Shown piece by piece: positions 1 to 38,894 of a stretch of DNA of 64,000 nt (its first letter is position 1; each line of letters begins with the position of its first letter). The position numbers were made by a program, and so were the translations under genes. The DNA is from a phage. The stretch is from sequence record NC_101835.1; one strand, given 5' to 3'. Under the pieces are notes generated by a model. It worked only from the letters and a program-made list of their open reading frames with translations, was not told the DNA's origin and searched no databases.

Positions 1-710
1 CAGGATTGTTGTCCATTAACAGTGGCTCTTGGTATAGTAACTGCATTGGCATTTGCAGAGGAACTTTTTGCATCGTTGCATTCAAGATTTCCTTGGATAG
101 CCAGTCTTGCACGGTTGGCAGTTATAGCATTGAGCTTCATAGCCGAAAACACAGGCTGCCCACCAGAAGGCTGAAATCTCCAACGGAACCCGTCTATTTG
201 GTGGGAAGGATCATCAAGATCTGTGCCGTCAGCACCACCGATGTTGTCCATAATCCAGAAATCCATCATCGTCTTGTCTGAGGTTATGGTGGTATATATT
301 GCCGCATTGTCTGTCGACGCAGATGCAAACTCGATTCTTTGAAGGCCTAAAGTTTGAGTCTGAGTCATTATGTCTCCAGACTTGTCAACATACAGATCGT
401 CCATTTCTTCAGGCGAGTATACGTTGAGAACTTGACGTGCAGCAGCTTTGTCTGGAACGTCTGCTAGATTATTAGTGACCCTTAAGAATCTATTATCCCA
501 TCCTGGGACAACATCTTCTGTTAGATGCTTTAACCACGCAGAAAGCATGTGAAGTTCAAAGTTAACAACTTCACATGCCACTCTTTGTGTCATATCCCAA
601 CCTTTCAATCTCTCTTCTTTTTTTGGTTGAGACTTATTCAACTCTCCCGTATTTTCAAGCACAACATCCTGATTGGCCCAAATATCAAGAGGGATAACTG
701 GTTTAGTCAT
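1..710 (-). CDS. tail fiber protein, second paralog (5' part only; gene runs off the window start)
   Basis: ATG at 708-710 (minus) preceded by CAGGAGAA; my translation MTKPVIPLDIWANQDVVLEN... stays open to position 1 and shares PxxPLxIWA, GWD, FRWRFQP and LNAITANRA motifs with the fiber at 1725-2765. Absent from ORF track because no stop lies in the window. Confidence 0.55.
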   Translation of the reverse strand, partial: MTKPVIPLDIWANQDVVLENTGELNKSQPKKEERLKGWDMTQRVACEVVNFELHMLSAWLKHLTEDVVPGWDNRFLRVTNNLADVPDKAAARQVLNVYSPEEMDDLYVDKSGDIMTQTQTLGLQRIEFASASTDNAAIYTTITSDKTMMDFWIMDNIGGADGTDLDDPSHQIDGFRWRFQPSGGQPVFSAMKLNAITANRARLAIQGNLECNDAKSSSANANAVTIPRATVNGQQS

Positions 711-799
711 CGCGTTCTCCTGAGAAAATTCCTTAGGACTATTTTAACACTTTAGAGAACAAAATGCAAGAACGGAGTCCTTTCCGTTCTGACCTTTGT

Positions 800-1114
800 T
801 TACCTTTTACTATGCTCTACGAGCATGTGCAAAATCTTTTGTACATCAGCTCGGATACCGGAGACATCTGTCCTGACATCCTGCTTAAGGTCGTTAATAT
901 CGGCCTCTAGCTTGCTTAACCGGGTCTCGATAACGGAATCAAGTTTATCTTTTGTAACCATACTGTTTTTCACTAAGATGAGGTCTTTCTCCAGTTCATC
1001 CAACCTCTTGGAAATGCCTTTCCATTTGGTGTGCCACTGGTTGAAAGCCCATACACAGATCGGGACAACGGTACCCATGCAGATACCGTACAATGCCGCC
1101 AAATCCAACTCCAC
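800..1114 (-). CDS. hypothetical membrane protein with coiled-coil region
   Basis: 104 aa; GTG start with GAGGAGG RBS; N-terminal hydrophobic segment GICMGTVVPICVWAF followed by heptad-like LDELEKDL... region. Function unknown (holin not excluded). Confidence 0.4.
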   Translation of the reverse strand: MELDLAALYGICMGTVVPICVWAFNQWHTKWKGISKRLDELEKDLILVKNSMVTKDKLDSVIETRLSKLEADINDLKQDVRTDVSGIRADVQKILHMLVEHSKR

Positions 1115-1125
1115 AACACCTCCTC

Positions 1126-1710
1126 TTAGAGGGTAGGTCGCTCCGGGAAGAAAATGTCAGGGGCTTTAGATGTATCTATTTCAAGAAGTTTTACCCTGTA
1201 CATTTTCAAATCTCTGATGTTACGTTTCTGGTCATCAGTAAGATCATATTCAAGGTCAATCATGTCTTGATAGGCACCAATTCTAGCAGTAGCCCAAGCA
1301 AGTTCTGTCTCTATGACACCCTCTGCCTGTTGAACAAAGAATTCATTATCTGTGACAAATTCATCACCAACTAAACGCAAAGCGTCGTGGTGAAGCATAA
1401 TGTTTTCTGGTACCTCTTCTTTTTTGGCGATAACCACACGAAGACCTGGAGCAGGCCATAAGGCATCAGGTTCTTCTGTAGATGTCTTAAGAATTCCCTT
1501 CTCGTCAACAAGTAGGAAGATACAACCCGGATTTTCTTGTCGTAATGTTCGTGACTGCACATACCAATCGCCATCATCATTACGTAAAAAATACCCAGTG
1601 TATGCGGTGTAATCCTCAACCTCTTGAGGGGTCAGCTCCTTGGTTTCCTTGTTGGAGTGGTATTCGCCAGATCCCGGTTGGTAAAGTTTAAACTCTTGAA
1701 GTATTTTCAT
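1126..1710 (-). CDS. tail fiber assembly protein (Tfa-like chaperone)
   Basis: 194 aa; C-terminal KMYRVKLLEIDTSKAPDIFFPERP matches the Tfa signature (lambda Tfa [21 protein letters not shown], from memory); directly downstream of a fiber gene; GGAGG RBS. Confidence 0.7.
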   Translation of the reverse strand: MKILQEFKLYQPGSGEYHSNKETKELTPQEVEDYTAYTGYFLRNDDGDWYVQSRTLRQENPGCIFLLVDEKGILKTSTEEPDALWPAPGLRVVIAKKEEVPENIMLHHDALRLVGDEFVTDNEFFVQQAEGVIETELAWATARIGAYQDMIDLEYDLTDDQKRNIRDLKMYRVKLLEIDTSKAPDIFFPERPTL

Positions 1711-1724
1711 GCTAGTCCTCCGAT

Positions 1725-2765
1725 CTATGCATAATTAACAGTGATCCATTGACCGTTTACAAGTTTTTGTAAAGGTCCTGCCCAGTAGGTTGAACCACGC
1801 ATCTCTTTTTTGTCACCGAAATGCCAGCCTGTGACAACGTAGCCGTTGCGAATTGGAGATTCGGAAACGCCGTCAACAAGTCTTGCACCGATTCTGATGT
1901 CTTGCACACCTGTCTGCGGGATAGTGATTGTTACATCACCGTTACCGTTAGCCGTCACTCCATTCACAGAGCGCACCACATTTCTGTTACCGACAACACA
2001 GTGCTGACTTCTTACAACCATACTGTCACAACTTGCACCACCATTAACATATACTGACCCAGCCGTCAACTGACTAGCCACATTACAGTTGGTGAATGTT
2101 GCTGTATTGCTGATAGTAAGGTTATTGCACCTCATGTTATCGACAACTTCAACATTGCCTACCACTTTCAACAGCGCACGATTAGCCGTGATCGCGTTAA
2201 GGTACATCAAAGTGAACTCTGGATTAATATCCGGCTGAGTTGGCTGGAATCTCCAACGAAACGCATCTACCGTAGATGTACCACCATCATCAAACGACCC
2301 AGCATTATCACTTAACCCAAAGTCGAGAGTTGTCTTATCCGGGCCAATAGTTGTCTCTATCCAAGCCTTATCTGTCTCGGCAGCTTTAAAGTTGATACGT
2401 TGCAAACCCAATGGGCCTGTCATTGTATCACCTGTAACTTTTACATACCTGGCGTCTGCCTCTTCCTTAGTAATAATCCCAAGGTTTCTACGGGCAACAG
2501 GAATGTTCAAAAGATCACTCAAGTTATTATCACGTACCAGATAACGGCCTTCTTGAGCGGGGATCTGCTCGTCAGCAATGTATTTTGCCCAAGTTCCGAG
2601 CATATTGAAAATATAGTTAAGTTCTTCACATGAGGGCTTTTGACCAAGATCCCAACCTTTTCTCCACAAATCATCAATCGGGCGTAGCCTGTTCTGTCTG
2701 TGGGTGTTAGGCAGAACCTGATCCTCCTCTGCCCAAATCTCTAATGGAAAACTAGGTTTTGACAT
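1725..2765 (-). CDS. distal tail fiber protein
   Basis: 346 aa; followed by the Tfa gene; N-terminal domain shared with the partial paralog at 1-710; C-terminal half divergent (receptor-binding-like); AGGAG RBS. Confidence 0.6.
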   Translation of the reverse strand: MSKPSFPLEIWAEEDQVLPNTHRQNRLRPIDDLWRKGWDLGQKPSCEELNYIFNMLGTWAKYIADEQIPAQEGRYLVRDNNLSDLLNIPVARRNLGIITKEEADARYVKVTGDTMTGPLGLQRINFKAAETDKAWIETTIGPDKTTLDFGLSDNAGSFDDGGTSTVDAFRWRFQPTQPDINPEFTLMYLNAITANRALLKVVGNVEVVDNMRCNNLTISNTATFTNCNVASQLTAGSVYVNGGASCDSMVVRSQHCVVGNRNVVRSVNGVTANGNGDVTITIPQTGVQDIRIGARLVDGVSESPIRNGYVVTGWHFGDKKEMRGSTYWAGPLQKLVNGQWITVNYA

Positions 2766-2777
2766 TTTATCTCCTGA

Positions 2778-4850
2778 TTATGAGAAGTCTGGAGGGACAA
2801 CATCTTCTACATACCCTTTCAGAGCAACCTGCCCCATATGAAGCACGGTAGAATCTCTGGCTGTAACAGTGATGCTGTCAGACATTACTTGCGGGTATGC
2901 CCACACATACTGTTTTACCTCGGGGTATCTATACTCTATGGTTGCCATGTTTCCGCAGATACATCTCCATAAAAATTCTTGGTAATTCCTGGTTGGGTCG
3001 TAGCCATATACCGGAGCAAGCTCTTTACTAGGAACGAACCCTGCAAGGTATTGTATTTCAGACGGTTGCCAACCTAACTTAACGATAGGTATGTTTACAG
3101 ACTCTTTTGCCTTTTCAATACCTCCCTGCATCACCCAATCGTAGCACTCGGTGCAGAAGAAATCAAGAGCACCTGCTTCCTTTTTATATTGGTCAGCAAG
3201 GTTCAGCTTTTGCGTAAGCTCGGTTTCCATGATGGTTGGGAAAAACAGCAAAGCTGTCATCTGAGCTGATGCAGCGTGTGCCTTTATTGCCTTTGAAATA
3301 GCCGCAATACGAGCGCCAAGCTTACCACGACAAAATGCTACATACTTGTCGTAAACACCGCCAGTTTTAGGATCGTCAATAGTCCCAATATCTAATGCAT
3401 ACTCACCTGTCTCATCATAAAACGCCTGCTTTGTAGGGTAATCATAAATACAAGGTCTACGAGTATCGGTATTGTACCACCACCACGGTTCACCAACCTG
3501 CATAATCACTGGCAGGTTGTTTCTCATAGCGGCTGATGCAAAATTCTTAAATACTGCAGTAAGGAAATTCATACCCTCTTCAATGGTTGGAGACAGGAGG
3601 TAGCTACAAGGTGTATACCCTGTTTTAGCGTAGTTATCGTTCCAGTCTCTTTGGGTCCATTCCAACGGGCAGGCATCGCTGAAAAGCTCAAAACTTACAG
3701 ATTGCATAACGTCGAAGTTATGTCGTTTGGCATTGTACATAAAATCATCATGCCATTTATAAGCTGCAGCGTTTAGCGCCCCTGTTCTGTTTATAGACCA
3801 TTGGGTTCCTGACCATGTGTAGTCATAATAATGACTCATACCAACATAGTGGTTTATGGTTCCGGTATAGCCCAGACGCTTGATATTGTTCAACACCCTT
3901 AAAGGAGATACGTTCCACATATCGTCATATGCGGTGCAGATCCCGACGTCGTGCTCTTTAACCTGAATATTGTTAAGTTCCATCATTTTCCAGCCCGTGT
4001 CTGGCTGAAGCAGATCTAGGCGCAACTCACACTCTACATTTTCCGTTCTCGGGTCTGTGCTATTACTTACCCAGTCTTTAGGCATAAGCGGTATTAAAAT
4101 CCTTCTCACCTGCCGAGGATCAACACCCATCATGTTGTTGTTCTGATCCATCCCGACGCAGTCCTCGAAATCAATATGAATCTCTGCAACATTCTTATCC
4201 TCTGAGATGCTGACAGCATATTGAGCTAAAGGAACATAGATGATTGTGCCATCAACAAGGTCTACAGTCATAATCATCTTTTCAGGAGTGGAGAAGTTGC
4301 TGGCATTGGTTATTGACATTCTGAACCAAAGCTTGGTGTTTCTCATCTCATAGTGATCATCAAACCCAATACCGAAATGGTCATACTTGTCAACTGTTTC
4401 CCAAATGCACCCAGCCATACCTCCATATGTTCTTGACACTAAACGGTTAATACAACAGTTGTCATCTGCAACAATACAGGTACTTTCAGTCTGCTGAGTG
4501 GTTGTAACCCAATATCTTGGGTGAAACATTCTCTCCTCAACAGTATCCCAGGATATCCTGTCAAGATTCTCATCTGAAACTATTGTACATTTCGCCCTTT
4601 GTGTCCCAATCATCACCCCTTGAGATTTTGATGAAAACTCCATAAAGAAGCTTCTTGGTAACCTGTTGGGTAATTTGTCAACAATTTCCACGGGGATCTC
4701 AATACTGGTTGCCCCAATTGGGATAGTTACATCGCCCTCAACATGATTATAATCCCTACCAGGAACGGCAGTATCCTGAACTGTTCGGTAGTGAAACTGT
4801 GCAGCCATTGTAGAGTAATCACGGTAAGGTTTAAAAACAGCTGTTGCCAT
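2778..4850 (-). CDS. tail-associated structural protein, function unknown
   Basis: 690 aa ORF in baseplate/fiber block; start overlaps upstream stop (TAATG); AGGAGG RBS. Confidence 0.35.
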   Translation of the reverse strand: MATAVFKPYRDYSTMAAQFHYRTVQDTAVPGRDYNHVEGDVTIPIGATSIEIPVEIVDKLPNRLPRSFFMEFSSKSQGVMIGTQRAKCTIVSDENLDRISWDTVEERMFHPRYWVTTTQQTESTCIVADDNCCINRLVSRTYGGMAGCIWETVDKYDHFGIGFDDHYEMRNTKLWFRMSITNASNFSTPEKMIMTVDLVDGTIIYVPLAQYAVSISEDKNVAEIHIDFEDCVGMDQNNNMMGVDPRQVRRILIPLMPKDWVSNSTDPRTENVECELRLDLLQPDTGWKMMELNNIQVKEHDVGICTAYDDMWNVSPLRVLNNIKRLGYTGTINHYVGMSHYYDYTWSGTQWSINRTGALNAAAYKWHDDFMYNAKRHNFDVMQSVSFELFSDACPLEWTQRDWNDNYAKTGYTPCSYLLSPTIEEGMNFLTAVFKNFASAAMRNNLPVIMQVGEPWWWYNTDTRRPCIYDYPTKQAFYDETGEYALDIGTIDDPKTGGVYDKYVAFCRGKLGARIAAISKAIKAHAASAQMTALLFFPTIMETELTQKLNLADQYKKEAGALDFFCTECYDWVMQGGIEKAKESVNIPIVKLGWQPSEIQYLAGFVPSKELAPVYGYDPTRNYQEFLWRCICGNMATIEYRYPEVKQYVWAYPQVMSDSITVTARDSTVLHMGQVALKGYVEDVVPPDFS

Positions 4851-5536
4851 TAACCCTCCTGTCTAGTTGCGTTTACTGTAATACTTTCACAATAAATGGT
4901 TGTGGTGTCCCAATCAGGTCTTACGTCAGGAACATATAGCAAAGTAGCCAGCCCACCAACTCCGAATTGGTTTTCTTCCCACACTGATCCGAAGCCAAGA
5001 GCTGTAGAGTCCCCTTCAAAACCAAAAGCTTGCCCTTGCGATTCTGTAAGACGCAAATGACAAGGTAATGGTAGCATATCTAAGATCTGATCGATAGACT
5101 GCAATATGTCAAAGCAAGTTTTTCTAATATTTATGTCAAACCTGAAGTTGTCTCCTTTCCACGTATCGAAATTGTCTCTTCCGAACAATTGTCGCAAGGT
5201 GGAGATGACATCTTCGCGAGTCCCGCCCCTTGATGCTGCGGCCTGCTGAATAATTAGTGTGGCACGAAAATCAGCATCTGAAAGTCCATTCCTAAGAATA
5301 CCAAGTTGATTACCAACTTCGTCAAGGTATCTTCCGCTGGCATTGTTAAGCAATCTTCCTTCAGCCAAACCTACCAGCATCTTATCAACATCCTCCAACC
5401 TTTTAAGGTACACGGTTAAGAATGTGACTAAATTAACCTTCTCAGCCAGAAAATCTCCAGGCAGGTAGTCAAGACCTCCCTGAACAAAATCTGGCAGAGT
5501 GTGGATGTGGTTAACATCCGACTTAATCTCTGCCAT
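4850..5536 (-). CDS. putative baseplate wedge protein
   Basis: 228 aa, immediately downstream of the baseplate J-like gene; assignment by position only. Confidence 0.3.
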   Translation of the reverse strand: MAEIKSDVNHIHTLPDFVQGGLDYLPGDFLAEKVNLVTFLTVYLKRLEDVDKMLVGLAEGRLLNNASGRYLDEVGNQLGILRNGLSDADFRATLIIQQAAASRGGTREDVISTLRQLFGRDNFDTWKGDNFRFDINIRKTCFDILQSIDQILDMLPLPCHLRLTESQGQAFGFEGDSTALGFGSVWEENQFGVGGLATLLYVPDVRPDWDTTTIYCESITVNATRQEG

Positions 5537-5547
5537 ATCTCGCCGCC

Positions 5548-7038
5548 TTAAATAGTTTGTTGGAAAGTTATATTACTTTCGTCGAGGTCAAACACCTCGG
5601 TCATGTTCGCAACAATATCGTTTGTAGTGTAAGCTTCATCAGAAGCCCCTACTGGTTTAACTTGAATTACCAGTCTATTAAATCTTCCTATTGACACAGC
5701 AGCAGATGCAGCACCTACCAATTGGATATTGTACAACGTATCTGCAACATCCAGTCCGTTAACAACCTGTAAAAGAGCCTCTACAATGGCATCTTTTTCG
5801 GTTGTGGAAAGCGCAGCACCGGAGTAGGTAATTCTCACATCTAGGCGGTAGGTATTCGCCTTGGAGTAATAAATTCTTTCAGTTTGACCGTCAGATGTAG
5901 TGACATCGTAGAAAATATTACCATAAGTCCTGTTCGTACAGGCTATAGTTTGGTAAAGTGCTTGGCAAATGTCCTCCGTTGCACCACCAAACACAACCAC
6001 TTGGAACTTGTAAGGAGGTATACCTTTAGCATCAGTTTTATCAGTGTTGTTGGAGAACACTCTCACTTTCTCAACACCTTTCACCTCGCTTACAGCGCTA
6101 AGGATTGCAGGACGGGTAGCCTTCGATGTTAACTGTTTTGTGCTGGAAGCTCTTAAGCGATACTCGGAATCTTTCTCAACATCCCTGCCCTCGTTGAATC
6201 TTTCTCGGTTGGTAAGCTTGATAAATCCGCTGGGAGTAGGTGACATTGTTGTCACGGTCTCTGCCTCTCTTGACAGCTCACCAGCCTCGTTAGCTATAAC
6301 ATCTAGGGTGATAGTTCTTTCCCCTACAATCGGGGATACTCTGAAATCTACCCTACTATTAAGTCCAACTTGATCAAGATTCGAATTGTACCCTATCCAC
6401 AACGTTCCTGTCAACATATCGATCTGAATCAAATCGTCGTTCAACAGGGTTGTATTATCGACAATGAACTGCTTAATCTCTCCGTAAAAGCTTGGCAGAT
6501 CAGAAGAGTCCAGAGACTTATCTGTTAAAACCAGACTTTTTGTTTTGATACTTCCATCTGTCTGGTTGGTGATTTGAAAGTTGTATTTACCAATCCTTAG
6601 GTCTGGAGCATTTATTCTGTGGGCAATAAGATTCCCTGCCACCTGCACATCATTGCTAAGAACAAAGTTGCCACTATCCAGCGTATAAGTTTTGGAATCA
6701 TAAATCATATTGTACGGCACAGTTGTGTTGATTGTCAACTGGCAGGTACCTGATGATTTAGAACGGCCTCTTCGGTAAATACCCTGTCTTCCAAGAAGCT
6801 CATCTAGGTAAATACCTTCTGCCCCATACAGCGTCTGTGATGCGTATACAGATGCTGCCATAAGAATAAGTTGATACTCTCGCTCGTTGAAGATAGTGGT
6901 CAGCTTATCTGCAACGGAGTTACTCTGTACGTTGAAGTTTTCGCCAAAAGCACGGATCAGGCTTTGCTTAGTTTCAACGATTAGGTCATTTAGGGTTGGT
7001 ATAACGAAACCAGCCTCTGTCAATCCATACTTAGCCAC
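5548..7038 (-). CDS. baseplate J-like protein
   Basis: 496 aa; N-terminus GLTEAGFVIPTLNDLIVETKQSLIRAFGE resembles baseplate J/gp6-like wedge proteins; GTG start with GGAGGAG RBS. Confidence 0.45.
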   Translation of the reverse strand: MAKYGLTEAGFVIPTLNDLIVETKQSLIRAFGENFNVQSNSVADKLTTIFNEREYQLILMAASVYASQTLYGAEGIYLDELLGRQGIYRRGRSKSSGTCQLTINTTVPYNMIYDSKTYTLDSGNFVLSNDVQVAGNLIAHRINAPDLRIGKYNFQITNQTDGSIKTKSLVLTDKSLDSSDLPSFYGEIKQFIVDNTTLLNDDLIQIDMLTGTLWIGYNSNLDQVGLNSRVDFRVSPIVGERTITLDVIANEAGELSREAETVTTMSPTPSGFIKLTNRERFNEGRDVEKDSEYRLRASSTKQLTSKATRPAILSAVSEVKGVEKVRVFSNNTDKTDAKGIPPYKFQVVVFGGATEDICQALYQTIACTNRTYGNIFYDVTTSDGQTERIYYSKANTYRLDVRITYSGAALSTTEKDAIVEALLQVVNGLDVADTLYNIQLVGAASAAVSIGRFNRLVIQVKPVGASDEAYTTNDIVANMTEVFDLDESNITFQQTI

Positions 7039-7108
7039 GTCACTCCTCCGGTATGAAAATCTCTACAAGGTATTTTACCAAATTTTGTAACAATAGTCAA
7101 TCTGAGCA

Positions 7109-7134
7109 TAAAAATAAACCCCGCCGAAGCGGGG
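7109..7134 (-). terminator. rho-independent terminator
   Basis: Hairpin CCCCGC-CGAA-GCGGGG followed on the minus strand by TTTATTTTT, just downstream of the 1279-aa fiber gene. Confidence 0.55.
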
Positions 7135-7143
7135 CTTTAAAGG

Positions 7144-10100
7144 TTAGTCGTGAGACTCGTTCCAAGGTCCTTGGAAGCTTGAGTTAGAACGGCTTACCAC
7201 AACAGTAGGACAGGATATTGCGACCCCTGTTACAGAAGACGTTGACCATGGTGTGTAGATTTCAACAACAATATCTATGGTTTGTTCACCAAGACCTGTT
7301 ATCCCTACCGCACACATGCCGTTGTTGTCGTTTCCGTACTTCTTACCTGCAAGGATTTGATGTCCGGCTATCCAAACGTTGAGCTGGGAGCTGGCAAGAG
7401 TACCATTCAGTTTAAAGAAGAATGTTACGTTCTTACCCTGACCTGAAACGTTATCTACGTATCTCCACCTCCAACGGCAAACCCTTTGCTGGGAGTTATA
7501 TACTGGAGCACAATCCCCGTAAGTCCTGTGTGCAACAATTGCACCTTCGAACTGGTTAGCGCGGATAACAGAAGCTTCTACACGACCACGGAAGGTACCT
7601 CCGGTTGCATCTATGGTGCCTCTAAAGCTGCCATTATTGGCATAAACATCTCCACGGAAGGTACCACTAGTGGCGTTAACTGCCCCTGTGAAGTTACCAG
7701 AACTGGCGTTGATGTTGCCTTTCACCCACACATCCATAAATTGGGCGTGCCCGTTCTTATTAATATACCAACCGTATTTATGGTACCCGTTGCCATCGTA
7801 GTTGTTTGACGAAATTTCTTGTGCGATCTTGGCAGAGGAGATCGTGCCATTCTCTATAAAAGCGTCTTTCAAGAACGCTTGGTTGTTCTTGATTGCGAAA
7901 GCAAGGGTTGCTGTTCCATTTCCTGGGTTGTATACCGCAAAATTGTTTGCACTAACCATGAAGTAGGATTGAACTTGGCCCCCAGACCCTTCCATCCCCA
8001 GCTGGATACCTGCAACATATTTATTCCCTGCGGAGTCTACCTGTATTTTTGTGCCCCATTGAGCATTTACTTTACCCTCTAAGTCGGTTACAGCCTTAGA
8101 TGTTGTAGCTACTGCAGCCCTGATCTCAGACACATCCCCAACATCATCAATGATCTCCTGCTTAGCAACAGCAAGTTCTTGACGAATAGCTGACGCTGTG
8201 CCGTTGATAAGGTCCACAGTGGCTTTATTGGTATCGGAAATTGTAGCATCCAGCGCTGTTTTTGTGGAGGTCAGTTTTCCATCCAAAGCATCAATCGCTT
8301 GCTTGTTGGTAGAAATCTCCCCACGTGCAGAAGTTATCTGCTCTGACAGTGCAGATGTTTTCTGATTCAACAAGTCAGTGGTGGCCTTGTTGGTATTGGC
8401 AATCAAGGTGTTGAGGTCAGTTTTTGCGGTAGTTATCTTGCCGTCAAGGGCGGTATAGTTTTTAGATACCGTCGCGTTTGTCTGACTAATCTTTTGATCC
8501 AGAGTTTCAGATGTCCTGTTCAAAAGATCCACAGTGGCCTGGTTAGTGCTCAAGATGCTTGCGTCAAGTTCTGTTCTCTGAGTATTGATCTTACCATCCA
8601 GAGTTTTATCTCCGGCTAAATACCCGCTCTCAACTCCCTCTATCTGCTCTACCAGCTCACCTTTGGCGGCAACCAATTTCTCATCTAAAGCCTCTGTCTT
8701 TTTGTTCAGAAGATCAGTAGTTGCTTTATTGGTTGTCTCAATCAGGGATGCCAATCTTCCACTTTCAGTGTTCAGATCGTTGGTGAACTTGTTCTGTGCA
8801 GCAACAAGTTTCCTATCCAGCGCTGTGATATTGCCATTGACATCCTCAAACTTCTGAGTTGTCTCTGTAACTACCGCACCTATTCTGTCTCCAAGTTGCT
8901 GGAATGCCTCATCTACCCTACCATCCATGTACCTGTTAAGTTCTGTGACACGATTTTCAACCTCTTCAATAGAGGAATCCAAAGTGCTCATCAACTCTTT
9001 ATAAGTTTCTGTCTTTTTGAATTCAGCATCTATCTGAGGCATCAAATCCTCAATAGAGGTGTAGCAGCGTGCAGCGCATTCTACAAACTGAGAACTACCA
9101 AAAGCGTTTGTGGTTCGAATATACCAATAATAAACCTTATCGTTCTGCAGACCTTCAGATGTCCAAGTTGAACCAACACCCATACGGGTGGCGTTTGAAG
9201 TAACTGTTGCATCACTGGTGTCGGGCAACCTTGTCATACCGGATGTCCAAAAGTCATACTGGGTGCTAACACTTGCTAAATCCCTACTATGCGGAATCAA
9301 GGTGATAGCAAAGTATCCTTGCTTAACCTCTACAGAAACCGGAGCTTCAGGTGCCTGAATGTTAAACTCACAATACGCTTCTGGAGATACACCACCTTTA
9401 TAAGATGTTGCAACAACAGTGGCTGTGTAGGAACCTTTAGTCAGACCTTCAACACGGACAAACTGCTCAACTGTCTGTGCTGTCCAAACAATCTCTCCGT
9501 TCTTTCTTACCTGCACAATATTTTGAGCGTAAGTCCCAACGTTGTCCCAGGCCAAAACACCGTGAGTTACTTCCCCAGCTTGGAGAACTGAGTATCTGAA
9601 GTTTTGCGGCTGAGCTACACCGGACGGGGATATCGGAATATCTACATCGCCGGAATCCGGAAGTTGCCCTGTGGCATCATTCCACTCTTTAGCATCTTGA
9701 CGAAGTTTTACCTTGACACCGCCCTTTTTGGTGAACTCCCATTCAAGAACCCTCATTTCTTGGCCCACTATACCAATACTTGGGAGGTCCATTGTAACAT
9801 AACGGCCAGGCTTAAATTTAAAACCTCGCATATTGCAGGTGACTTCAATAATCCTGCCAGCTCTAGCACGTCTTAAGAAGATTGCAGAAACACGCTGAGC
9901 TTGATAAGGGCTGGTAACAAAGCGATAGTCTATATCGATTATCTTTCTTTCTCCATCCTTCTCTATCCACTCTGGGACAAACACTGATGGAAAATCTGTT
10001 TCAGAATACCCTTTGGTCGGGCTAGTGAATCTGCCAGTTATTGTGTTGGATCTTTTGTCAAATGAGGCTTCCGGATAGATCTTAACCTCACCACAGACAC

Positions 10101-37585: not shown

Positions 37586-38468
37586 CGTTTATGTTCGGGC
37601 AAGGTCGCTAGTCTTGCCCCGCCATTTTCAGGCAGCTGCATGTCTCCATGCAGACCAGACTATATCTTATGAATGTGTAAATACTCTGCCGCTCTAAGAA
37701 TAGTTTCCTCATCCTCTTGGAAGAAACCTAAAGCTCTGTTGCATTTATCACAAAGCAACCCTCTTACAGCACCAGTTTTATGGTCATGATCAACACAAAA
37801 GAAATCTCTATACCCTTGCGTCCTATACTCATCAAGGGATATTCTACAAATGGCACACTTATGATCTTGATCTGAGAGTAGACGATAGTATTCATCTTTT
37901 GTTATGTGAAATTTCTTCTCAATCTGATAAAACTTTTCACACATCTTACACCTGTTCGTAACCAGATATACTTTACCATAGTCACGTTTTGTGTAAAAAC
38001 TATCAGCGAGCATACTTTCATGACAAGATTTGCATTCAAAAAGTTCACCTTTCTTCAGCAAGTCTTGAATAAACAATGCTGCGTCATCTCTCTTAACCAT
38101 ATTTTTGTTTTTACGAGATCCACCCTTCCTGTAGTACATATAGCATTCCTTGCATGTACCTGAGTATCCATCCTTGCTCTTAGATGATAAAAAGAAATCA
38201 TCAATAGGTAGAACTCTTTGGCAATCCATACATTTTTTAGTATTACACATTCACCCTCCCGTTTCGAATCGCTTGATTCTACGTCTTTCGACTAGTCGTT
38301 GAACGTTCATCCTCTCGGATGCTTCGCTGCGGATTATCTAAATTAACACACTGTTACCATACCTTCGATCTCTCTTCGAAGCCTCTGTCATGTTACCATG
38401 GCAGGTTGGTGGTGTCAATAATAAAGATTTCCCCGCAATTAGGGAGGTTTTACGAGAGCTACAAATTA
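37586..38468 (-). mobile_element. group I intron interrupting the terminase large subunit gene
   Basis: Minus strand carries all four core elements in canonical order: P AATTGCGGGGAAA (38428-38440), Q AATCCGCAGC (38326-38335), R GTTCAACGACTAG (38290-38306), S AAGATATAGTCTGG (37655-37668), then a P9-like hairpin GGGCAAG..CTTGCCC. Exon 1 ends in U, intron ends in G. Exact splice sites inferred. Confidence 0.75.
37660..38250 (-). CDS. intron-encoded homing endonuclease (endonuclease VII / His-Cys type)
   Basis: 196 aa in the P8 position between R and S; C-terminal DHDHKTGAVRGLLCDKCNRALG matches the T4 endo VII signature; several CxxC pairs; GGGAGGG RBS; stop codon lies inside the S element. Confidence 0.7.
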   Translation of the reverse strand: MCNTKKCMDCQRVLPIDDFFLSSKSKDGYSGTCKECYMYYRKGGSRKNKNMVKRDDAALFIQDLLKKGELFECKSCHESMLADSFYTKRDYGKVYLVTNRCKMCEKFYQIEKKFHITKDEYYRLLSDQDHKCAICRISLDEYRTQGYRDFFCVDHDHKTGAVRGLLCDKCNRALGFFQEDEETILRAAEYLHIHKI

Positions 38469-38894
38469 ACCCTCATCGAAGCAAACCATGGTGTACTCAA
38501 GCCCCTGATGGTTAAGCTTATCTTGTACATACTCCATATGGCAGTATTTTACAACAGCTCCCTTTTTGCTTCTATCCCACTTGCCAGTGTTCGGATCAAA
38601 CCGTGGAAAAATGAACTTATGATCCTTCTCTCTGAACTTTGGCTTAATGTTTTCAGGCAGATCACTATAAATAGCTACTGCTTTAGGCCATAGTCCACCC
38701 TCACCTTCCAACTGTGGGGTTGTTCTTCGGAACATAACCACAGAGCTGTGGGGGTCATCAATAATTTTAAGTGGCATCAACTGCAAGAGGAACGACTTGC
38801 CAGACCCTGCGGCACCGCCGATTACCAAAATATCTGCATCGTTTTCGAGGATCATCTTCTGCTTTTCAGAGCACGGTCCGTAAATCTTAGACAT
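38469..38894 (-). CDS. terminase large subunit, exon 1 (ATPase Walker A/B)
   Basis: Walker A GGAAGSGKS and Walker B MVCFDEG; frame is closed by a TAA immediately after the Walker B, which is where the intron begins. Confidence 0.7.

Follow-up and report, generated by a model that had tools for sequence, protein, structure and literature searches.

A probable two-fibre, one-chaperone short-tail-fibre module at the start of an rV5-like Vequintavirus sequence

Introduction

The 64-kb stretch of phage DNA studied here (NC_101835.1; hereafter the window, meaning the whole stretch) begins with a short-tail-fibre locus, encoded entirely on the minus strand, in which two related fibre genes are separated by a gene for a tail fibre assembly (Tfa) chaperone and a small open reading frame (ORF). 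Are these fibres interchangeable host-range cassettes, built on a common N-terminus and carrying different tips, or are they fixed parts of one module? A sequence-only reading of the window had taken the former view: it described distal tail fibres in tandem with a shared N-terminus and swapped C-termini, expected a second chaperone beyond the window edge, and saw in the arrangement a route to host-range change. We consider it highly probable that the locus is instead the short-tail-fibre module of Vequintavirus, consisting of two full-length, Mu-S-type paralogous fibres, short tail fibre 1 (STF1) and short tail fibre 2 (STF2), with a single Tfa-type chaperone, gp32, encoded between them.

Over window positions 1-5000, DNA identity to Escherichia phage rV5 is 99.2%, and more than 110 further Vequintavirus records match at 95-99.7%. 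The four genes of the locus correspond to rV5 gp33 (STF1), gp32 (the chaperone), gp31 (here m104) and gp30 (STF2), and their products are 100% identical to those of rV5 within the window; we therefore used rV5 (locus L001) for sequence beyond position 1.

Much of what this locus encodes is already in print. Kropinski 2013 (PMC3606486) described rV5 gp30 and gp33 as gp12-like proteins of similar size and 42.3% identity, reported HHpred similarity of both fibres to T4 gp12 (1PDI; probabilities 98.4 and 97.7), suggested two lipopolysaccharide (LPS) chemotypes, and detected gp30, gp32 and gp33 in rV5 virions by mass spectrometry, so that the virion proteomics proposed as a check by the sequence-only reading had already been reported. 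Maffei 2021 stated that Vequintavirinae sensu stricto carry two paralogous short tail fibres plus a chaperone, homologous to Mu GpS/GpU, found little allelic variation in the short tail fibres, linked these fibres to LPS outer-core glucose as their terminal receptor, and assigned the variable host-range determinants of the genus to large lateral fibre genes. In the close relative LL12, genetics has shown waaC, waaF and waaG to be required. As the gene pair, the 42% identity, the chaperone and virion presence are all published for rV5, the two-fibre-plus-chaperone locus is an ordinary feature and the finding is already known; between the rV5 locus and that of the window there is no substantive difference. 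Our additions to the published accounts are minor, namely regional identities, a single-duplication phylogeny, a replaced m157 slot, a conserved promoter junction, a clustering of changes in the docking domain and a 3′-end conversion signal.

Results

The two in-window fibres align by BLASTP with 45% identity over ~215 residues (E 2e-58), far beyond chance, and the sequence-only reading was correct both in seeing homologous fibres in tandem and in its coordinates and gene order (fibre, Tfa-like chaperone, membrane/coiled-coil ORF, second fibre from 710). The ATG at 710 opens a minus-strand frame of 236 codons with no stop down to position 3, and its product is 100% identical to residues 1-236 of rV5 gp30. 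Used as queries, gp33 and gp30 each match two places per Vequintavirus record, and both fit the family profile phrog_4465, gp33 with residues 1-346 against profile positions 1-342 of 342 (E 1.9e-171) and gp30 with in-window residues 1-235 against positions 1-229 (E 7.6e-113). Beyond the window edge, full-length rV5 gp30 (347 residues) aligns with gp33 over all 346 residues at 42% identity (E 2e-92), reproducing the published value. Both C-termini follow the pattern ...YW.G..QKLVNGQWIT..YA, with QKLVNGQWIT identical.

Compared by region, gp30 and gp33 are 46% identical over residues 1-205/210, 34-36% identical over the shaft (206-285) and 45% identical over the last 61 residues, which form the tip, so that the C-terminus is no more divergent than the N-terminus. 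No breakpoint appeared in sliding windows along the pair, whose third codon positions are close to saturated over the whole length. The divergence between the two genes is ancient and roughly even along their length, and both tips fall in one Mu-S-like tip class. The supposedly different tail of the second fibre amounts, within the window, to the ~23 STF2 residues that follow the aligned block and belong to the shaft segment with the lowest conservation.

Genuine exchange of tips does occur in the subfamily. Av-05 (L003) and TH18 (L005), which are almost identical phages, served as a positive control: across the fibre and Tfa genes (~5000-6700), fibre identity is 99% for the N-terminal half but falls to 92% for the shaft and 45% for the tip, and that of the Tfa proteins is 34%, a clear natural exchange of tip plus chaperone. 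The TH18 tip groups with that of phiTE, and the phi92 tip with those of Av-05 and R7; the tip classes do not track phage phylogeny. A clean co-transfer of Tfa and tip between TH18 and phiTE was also considered, and was dropped when the pattern proved not to be clean. These exchanges, the ~23 unaligned STF2 residues and the suggestion of two LPS chemotypes (PMC3606486) all favour the view that the present genes are alternative cassettes with a common N-terminus, unrelated exchanged tips and a chaperone each, serving to extend or switch host range. For gp33 and gp30 we judge this very unlikely. The N-terminal half is no better conserved than the tip and the full-length alignment contradicts an exchange; both tips are of one class, and within the genus no part of either gene is better conserved; each genome has one gp32-like gene, with no Tfa gene downstream of gp30; and in the divergent lineage L015, described below, the two fibres carry nearly identical tips. 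The idea of swapped tips is sound for the subfamily, but it does not describe this pair. Likewise, a search for an invertible segment or shufflon returned two weak inverted pairs of 14-18 nt that do not flank the fibre genes; the annotation of the 29-kb rV5 locus, where both fibre genes are complete and in the same orientation, lists no invertase.

The chaperone itself was recognised through Pfam family PF02413, Caudo_TAP (E 9e-12; 45.7 bits against a cut-off of 22.1), over residues 121-192 only, and through phrog_136 (E 2.2e-36). Confinement of the Caudo_TAP match to the C-terminal third fits a modular Tfa model in which, as North 2019 is relayed in PMC9608196, fibre binding falls to a variable N-terminal domain and trimerisation to a conserved, helical C-terminal one; a PDB sequence search with gp32 matched no solved Tfa. 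In a tblastn search, 220 phage records, rV5 among them, each had a single place matching gp32, and no second gp32-like gene was found elsewhere in the 64-kb window. A Caudo_TAP gene lies directly downstream of gp33, whereas gp30 is followed in rV5 and SophiaRose by genes for an 88-residue membrane protein (gp29, phrog_1322; here m88), a 581-residue fibre (gp28) and an 1878-residue Ig-domain protein. The second chaperone expected outside the window is thus missing from the place where it should stand.

To place the fibres among solved structures, PDB sequences were searched by phmmer with single sequences and with a mixed STF1/STF2 profile. Residues 1-108 of gp33 matched the short tail fibre of phiTE (9CUY chain c, residues 1-111; phmmer E 1.4e-19, profile 2.4e-25), of which residues 3-92 form a globular joint docked on wedge protein 1 (PMC11972413). 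At the other end, residues 286-343 of gp33 matched the Mu S tip (5YVQ chain A, 440-501; phmmer E 6.2e-6, profile 1.6e-10). Judged by these matches, the first ~110 residues of STF1 and STF2 are homologous to the phiTE wedge-docking domain, and the last ~60 residues of STF1 and of the mixed profile are homologous to the Mu S tip. No chain of T4 gp12 was matched among PDB sequences at E up to 1, with either single sequences or the profile, and the published HHpred hit was not reproduced by these searches. We found no Vequintavirus baseplate structure in the literature. The phiTE match argues for short, baseplate-attached fibres, and the earlier label of distal tail fibres does not fit.

Comparison with related phages indicates how the second fibre came to occupy its position. 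The order wedge, baseplate protein, gp34, STF1, Tfa, m104, STF2, m88, fibre is collinear between the window and the annotated rV5 and SophiaRose loci, and the same wedge-to-fibre order recurs in four Logan contigs (L015-L018). In seven single-fibre Vequintavirinae loci from several other genera (Av-05, TH18, R7, GAP31, FENT2, KpS8 and phiTE), the order is wedge, baseplate protein, (gp34), STF, Tfa, m104, m157, m88, next fibre, where m157 is a polytopic membrane protein of 157 residues (phrog_7451) whose start overlaps the m104 stop. Comparison of L001 11389-12710 with ~6950-7500 in L003-L006 and L008-L010 places STF2 exactly in the m157 slot of these loci. The m157 family occurs in 107 phage records, with no rV5-like phage among the matches listed, and no m157 gene or remnant of one was found anywhere in the window, the spacer between gp31 and gp30 included.

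The 89-nt spacer between gp31 and gp30 carries signals of its own. Directly after the gp31 stop, a predicted hairpin running from 790 to 769 has 8 pairs, a tail of TGCATTTTGT and a fold z-score of about -3, and its pairing is kept with a different stem sequence in L016. It is followed by a promoter-like element, TTGCAT-N17-TGTTAAAAT, ending ~30 nt before the gp30 ATG. The motif TGKTAAAATA is found 5 times in the window where 0.5 would be expected, each time on the minus strand (the other four at 7071, 12582, 26729 and 30250), and the TGGTAAAAT -10 box is also present in rV5 promoter P036 (supplement of PMC3606486). Neither the -35 box nor the extended -10 box differs between the window, L016 and L015, but the spacer between them does. 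STF2 would accordingly appear to start a separate transcription unit, as far as such predicted signals can tell.

Two further two-fibre lineages came from querying 5.8 billion proteins with gp30 and looking up the contigs of the matches; all of these contigs are unverified public (Logan) assemblies. L016-L018 share the two-fibre architecture, with STF1 87% and STF2 78% identical to the rV5 proteins. L015 (Logan SRR24653873, a 135-kb contig with fibres at 4913-5953 and 7001-8065) is more distant, its STF1 being 73% and its STF2 48% identical to rV5; its Tfa has only 44% identity to gp32, and its m88 homologue, at 118 residues, is an extended one. An IMG/VR scan with gp30 yielded only 4 loci, too few for population analysis. 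In a neighbour-joining (NJ) tree of the N-terminal 210 residues that includes the two extra lineages, the STF1 clade (95%) and STF2 clade (100%) are sisters (94% bootstrap), with the single-copy fibres outside. This tree is most simply explained by a single duplication in the ancestor of the Vequintavirus lineage, after which STF2 evolved faster.

Alternatively, STF2 might have been imported by horizontal transfer as a promoter-bearing insert replacing the m157 gene. In keeping with such an import, gp33 is nearer to the single fibres of sister genera (52-57%) than to gp30 (45-46%), gp30 fell outside the gp33 clade in a first tree, the gene sits in the m157 slot behind a terminator/promoter junction of its own, and its motif QPKKEER resembles RPKETIR of phi92. 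A faster rate in STF2, however, explains the asymmetric distances, and the N-terminal halves of STF1 and STF2 become sisters once two lineages break the long branch. Nor did the search of 5.8 billion proteins find a closer relative of gp30 outside two-fibre genomes, the 46-48% matches being STF2-like and one of them (P0004) being the L015 STF2 itself. Import is therefore unlikely in our estimate, and we retain a single duplication.

Both copies appear to be maintained. In ~116 Vequintavirus records gp33 and gp30 are 95-100% conserved. Between rV5 and the IMG/VR genome L014 (~95% identical), the ratio of nonsynonymous to synonymous change (dN/dS) is ~0.01 at the tips, with a nonsynonymous value (pN) of 0.007, in both fibres; outside the tips it is 0.01-0.06, and overall 0.02-0.05. 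The tip is also the least changed region of the fibres relative to L016. Both fibres and their tips are under strong purifying selection, with the tips the most constrained part, which speaks against a host-range role for this pair within the genus. That one copy is decaying or redundant, with no function of its own, is likewise extremely improbable: although sister genera manage with one fibre and STF2 has changed faster than STF1 in both the L016 and L015 lineages, both frames are intact in the ~116 genomes and in two divergent lineages, dN/dS is low throughout, the promoter is conserved and both proteins are present in virions.

If the tips are constrained, where do the paralogues differ consistently? 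Among positions invariant in seven STF1 or single-copy fibres, those changed in all three STF2 proteins number 12 of 44 in residues 1-110, 2 of 36 in residues 111-210 and 0 of 18 beyond (Fisher p 0.001 for residues 1-110 versus 2/54 in the rest), which does not fit a shared N-terminus with a swapped C-terminus. Among these changes is replacement of the RPIDDLW motif by QP(K/E/G)K(E/D)(E/L)R. The N-terminal halves of STF1 and STF2 are 44-48% identical in all three lineages, whereas their tips are 45%, 45% and 87% identical, the last value being that of L015, in which the N-terminal halves are 44% identical and the two tips group together with 100% bootstrap support.

A related signal is found at the 3′ ends of the genes. 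A 62-nt direct repeat shared by the two fibre genes (window 1726-1787 and L001 11668-11729) is 84% identical and includes a 30-nt exact run coding for QKLVNGQWIT. Where the two fibres have the same residue, the codon is also the same at 11 of 13 positions in this repeat, compared with 40 of 128 outside it (Fisher p 2.6e-4). In the rV5 group both paralogues read CTT GTA ... CAA; in the L016 group CTG GTC ... CAG prevails in both, the STF1 of L017 having one CTT. This codon usage suggests that short-tract gene conversion has likely acted on the last ~10 codons of the two fibres.

Together, the data allow a more specific and tentative proposal, which we regard as possible without leaning towards it: that the lasting difference between the paralogues lies in the docking domain rather than the tip, STF2 having displaced the m157 gene, gained a promoter and re-specialised residues 1-110 to give two sets of short fibres, while the shared chaperone ties the C-termini together, through short-tract conversion in the rV5 and L016 lineages and through homogenisation of the whole tip in L015.

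Table 1. Annotated elements of the short-tail-fibre locus, in window coordinates
Feature	Coordinates	Strand	Remarks
Short tail fibre 1 (STF1, rV5 gp33)	1725..2765	-	346-residue ORF; phrog_4465 full length
STF1 3′-terminal 62 nt, repeated at the STF2 3′ end	1726..1787	-	Direct repeat D1, 84% identity
Tail fibre assembly chaperone (Tfa, rV5 gp32)	1126..1710	-	194 residues; Caudo_TAP, phrog_136
m104 (rV5 gp31), N-terminal transmembrane (TM) segment and coiled coil	800..1114	-	104 residues; phrog_5345
Terminator-like hairpin directly after the gp31 stop	769..790	-	Scan match, T-rich tail
Promoter-like element ~30 nt upstream of the STF2 ATG	741..769	-	TTGCAT-N17-(TGT)TAAAAT
Short tail fibre 2 (STF2, rV5 gp30), first 236 of 347 codons	3..710	-	Open frame, runs past the window edge

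Coordinates of the locus are collected in Table 1; NCBIfam returned no match for any of its five proteins. The gp31 ORF has a GTG start with a good Shine-Dalgarno sequence upstream, belongs to phrog_5345 (E 1.1e-48) and gave only weak, sub-threshold coiled-coil matches in Pfam. Its family is found in 223 phage records, at identities of at least 95% in 116 and below 60% in 107, and m104 follows the Tfa gene in every Vequintavirinae locus examined (Av-05, R7, TH18, GAP31, FENT2, KpS8 and phiTE). A role for gp31 as an i-spanin was ruled out, as the LL12 announcement gives the spanins and endolysin to gp65, gp66 and gp90. Also ruled out was the possibility that gp31 and gp29 are paralogues in a repeated unit of fibre plus small membrane protein, as they have no similarity. 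The small membrane proteins m104, m157 and m88 form a conserved trio inside the tail-fibre module; separately, the LL12 announcement reports that the holin of these phages is unidentified.

Directly upstream of the fibres, gp34 (window 2778-4850, minus strand, 690 residues) combines a Calx-beta domain with the N-terminal and TIM-barrel domains of the N4 gp65 'non-contractile tail sheath' protein (PF23844 and PF23845; E 4e-80). The deacetylase-type fibre phi92 gp142, which is homologous to gp34, has been described as an NGR glycan binder in Vequintavirus and Justusliebigvirus (bioRxiv 10.64898/2026.04.02.716166).

Several observations concern the wider window and its relatives. Sixteen GenBank 'Campylobacter phage' records within MG065635-MG065690 (host given as Campylobacter, and as C. 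jejuni in 15) are 98.6-99.7% identical to window 1-5000; this region being E. coli rV5-like, their host label looks doubtful. At 37636-38478 (minus strand), an Rfam group I intron model matched at its gathering score (50.3 bits), and according to the LL12 genome report the genes for the large terminase and the DNA polymerase carry introns in this phage group. The stretch 40432-41156 (minus strand) holds six clustered tRNA genes (Met, Thr, Ser, Tyr, Arg). Within this cluster lies an odd tRNA-like gene of 99 nt (40589-40687), to which ARAGORN assigns a four-base anticodon and Rfam a score of just 35.5 bits.

Discussion

Overall, the sequence-only reading was right about two homologous fibres in tandem, split by a Tfa gene and a membrane-protein ORF, but the swapped tips, second chaperone, host-range role and distal position that it attached to them did not withstand comparison with complete loci. 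A module of two paralogous short fibres with one chaperone gene accounts for the locus in the following way. Each fibre would form a trimer with its N-terminus docked on the baseplate, and gp32 would fold the tips of both fibres and stay attached to them. Sharing of gp32 would keep the extreme C-termini alike, up to the point of gene conversion. STF2, under its own promoter, would have had its docking domain re-specialised for a second baseplate site or partner, and the two conserved but differing tips would bind two variants of a conserved receptor. This receptor would most likely be the LPS core, since LL12 genetics requires the core; the two fibres probably perform the terminal LPS-core step. 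The single chaperone gene, the gene-conversion pattern and the concerted change of the L015 tips support one chaperone for both fibres, without proving it.

This arrangement may be compared with better-characterised fibre systems. In Mu, the S and U proteins offer the same tip logic, with a shared C-terminal region of ~60 residues ending ..QK.(V/I)NG.W, a Caudo_TAP chaperone gene directly downstream and the chaperone present in virions. Mu alternates between S/U and S′/U′ through inversion of the G segment, whereas the present locus has two complete, co-oriented fibre genes and a single chaperone, and the N-terminal two thirds of gp33 and gp30 are not alignable with Mu S. In the 2026 cryo-electron microscopy structure of phi92, gp147 is the 'fibre III' fitted to the bottom of wedge gp145 and pointing down, for which a role in stable adsorption and as a contraction trigger has been proposed (PMC13450770). 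As in rV5, gp147 comes after two wedge/baseplate genes and is followed by a Tfa gene (gp148) and an ORF with a TM segment and coiled coil (gp149), and its tip is 53% identical to that of gp33. It differs in being a single copy with an unrelated shaft and ~23% full-length identity to gp30, and the m88 homologue of phi92 lies upstream of the wedge genes.

Phage phiTE shares the gene order STF, Tfa, m104, m157, m88, next fibre, but its single fibre (PDB 9CUY/9MJN) has 554 residues with a coiled coil and Ig-like domains, its tip is of another class, and m157 is kept. T4 gp12, a short fibre of the baseplate believed to make adsorption irreversible by binding the LPS core, is a functional analogue; it depends on gp57A rather than a Tfa-type chaperone.

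Several points weigh against this account of the locus or limit how far it reaches. Taken alone, gp30 matched the phiTE N-terminal domain more weakly than gp33 (residues 1-83, E 1.4e-9) and gave no Mu S match in the PDB search, although it aligns with gp33 across the tip region. An AlphaFold2 monomer of gp33 built from a 9-sequence alignment was unusable (predicted local distance difference test, pLDDT, 34.5; predicted template-modelling score, pTM, 0.19). The second docking site, the trimeric state, the sharing of the chaperone and the receptor of each fibre are points that we infer. The single-chaperone result covers gp32-like genes, and a chaperone of an unrelated family may be encoded elsewhere in the genome. 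The promoter and terminator are likewise predictions made from sequence. As for history, the trees are distance-based (NJ) with few taxa. In the first of them, without the Logan lineages, gp30 stood outside the gp33 clade (67% bootstrap); we judge this a long-branch effect, but it makes the sister grouping of STF1 and STF2 dependent on those assemblies. Finally, the conversion signal comes down to three synonymous sites and one lineage split, a pattern that nucleotide-level constraint could mimic.

As a discovery the locus carries little weight, and its practical value is a corrected reading, in which the two genes encode conserved short fibres rather than variable host-range determinants. For engineering of rV5-like therapeutic phages, it matters that both fibres appear to depend on one chaperone, that their tips are strongly constrained and that the differences between the paralogues lie in the docking domain. 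The replaced membrane-protein gene, separate promoter and 3′-end conversion could guide the reading of a Vequintavirus baseplate by cryo-electron microscopy. If our tentative proposal of diverging docking domains and tied C-termini is true, the locus would offer a small, clean natural case in which a chaperone limits how duplicated receptor-binding proteins evolve.

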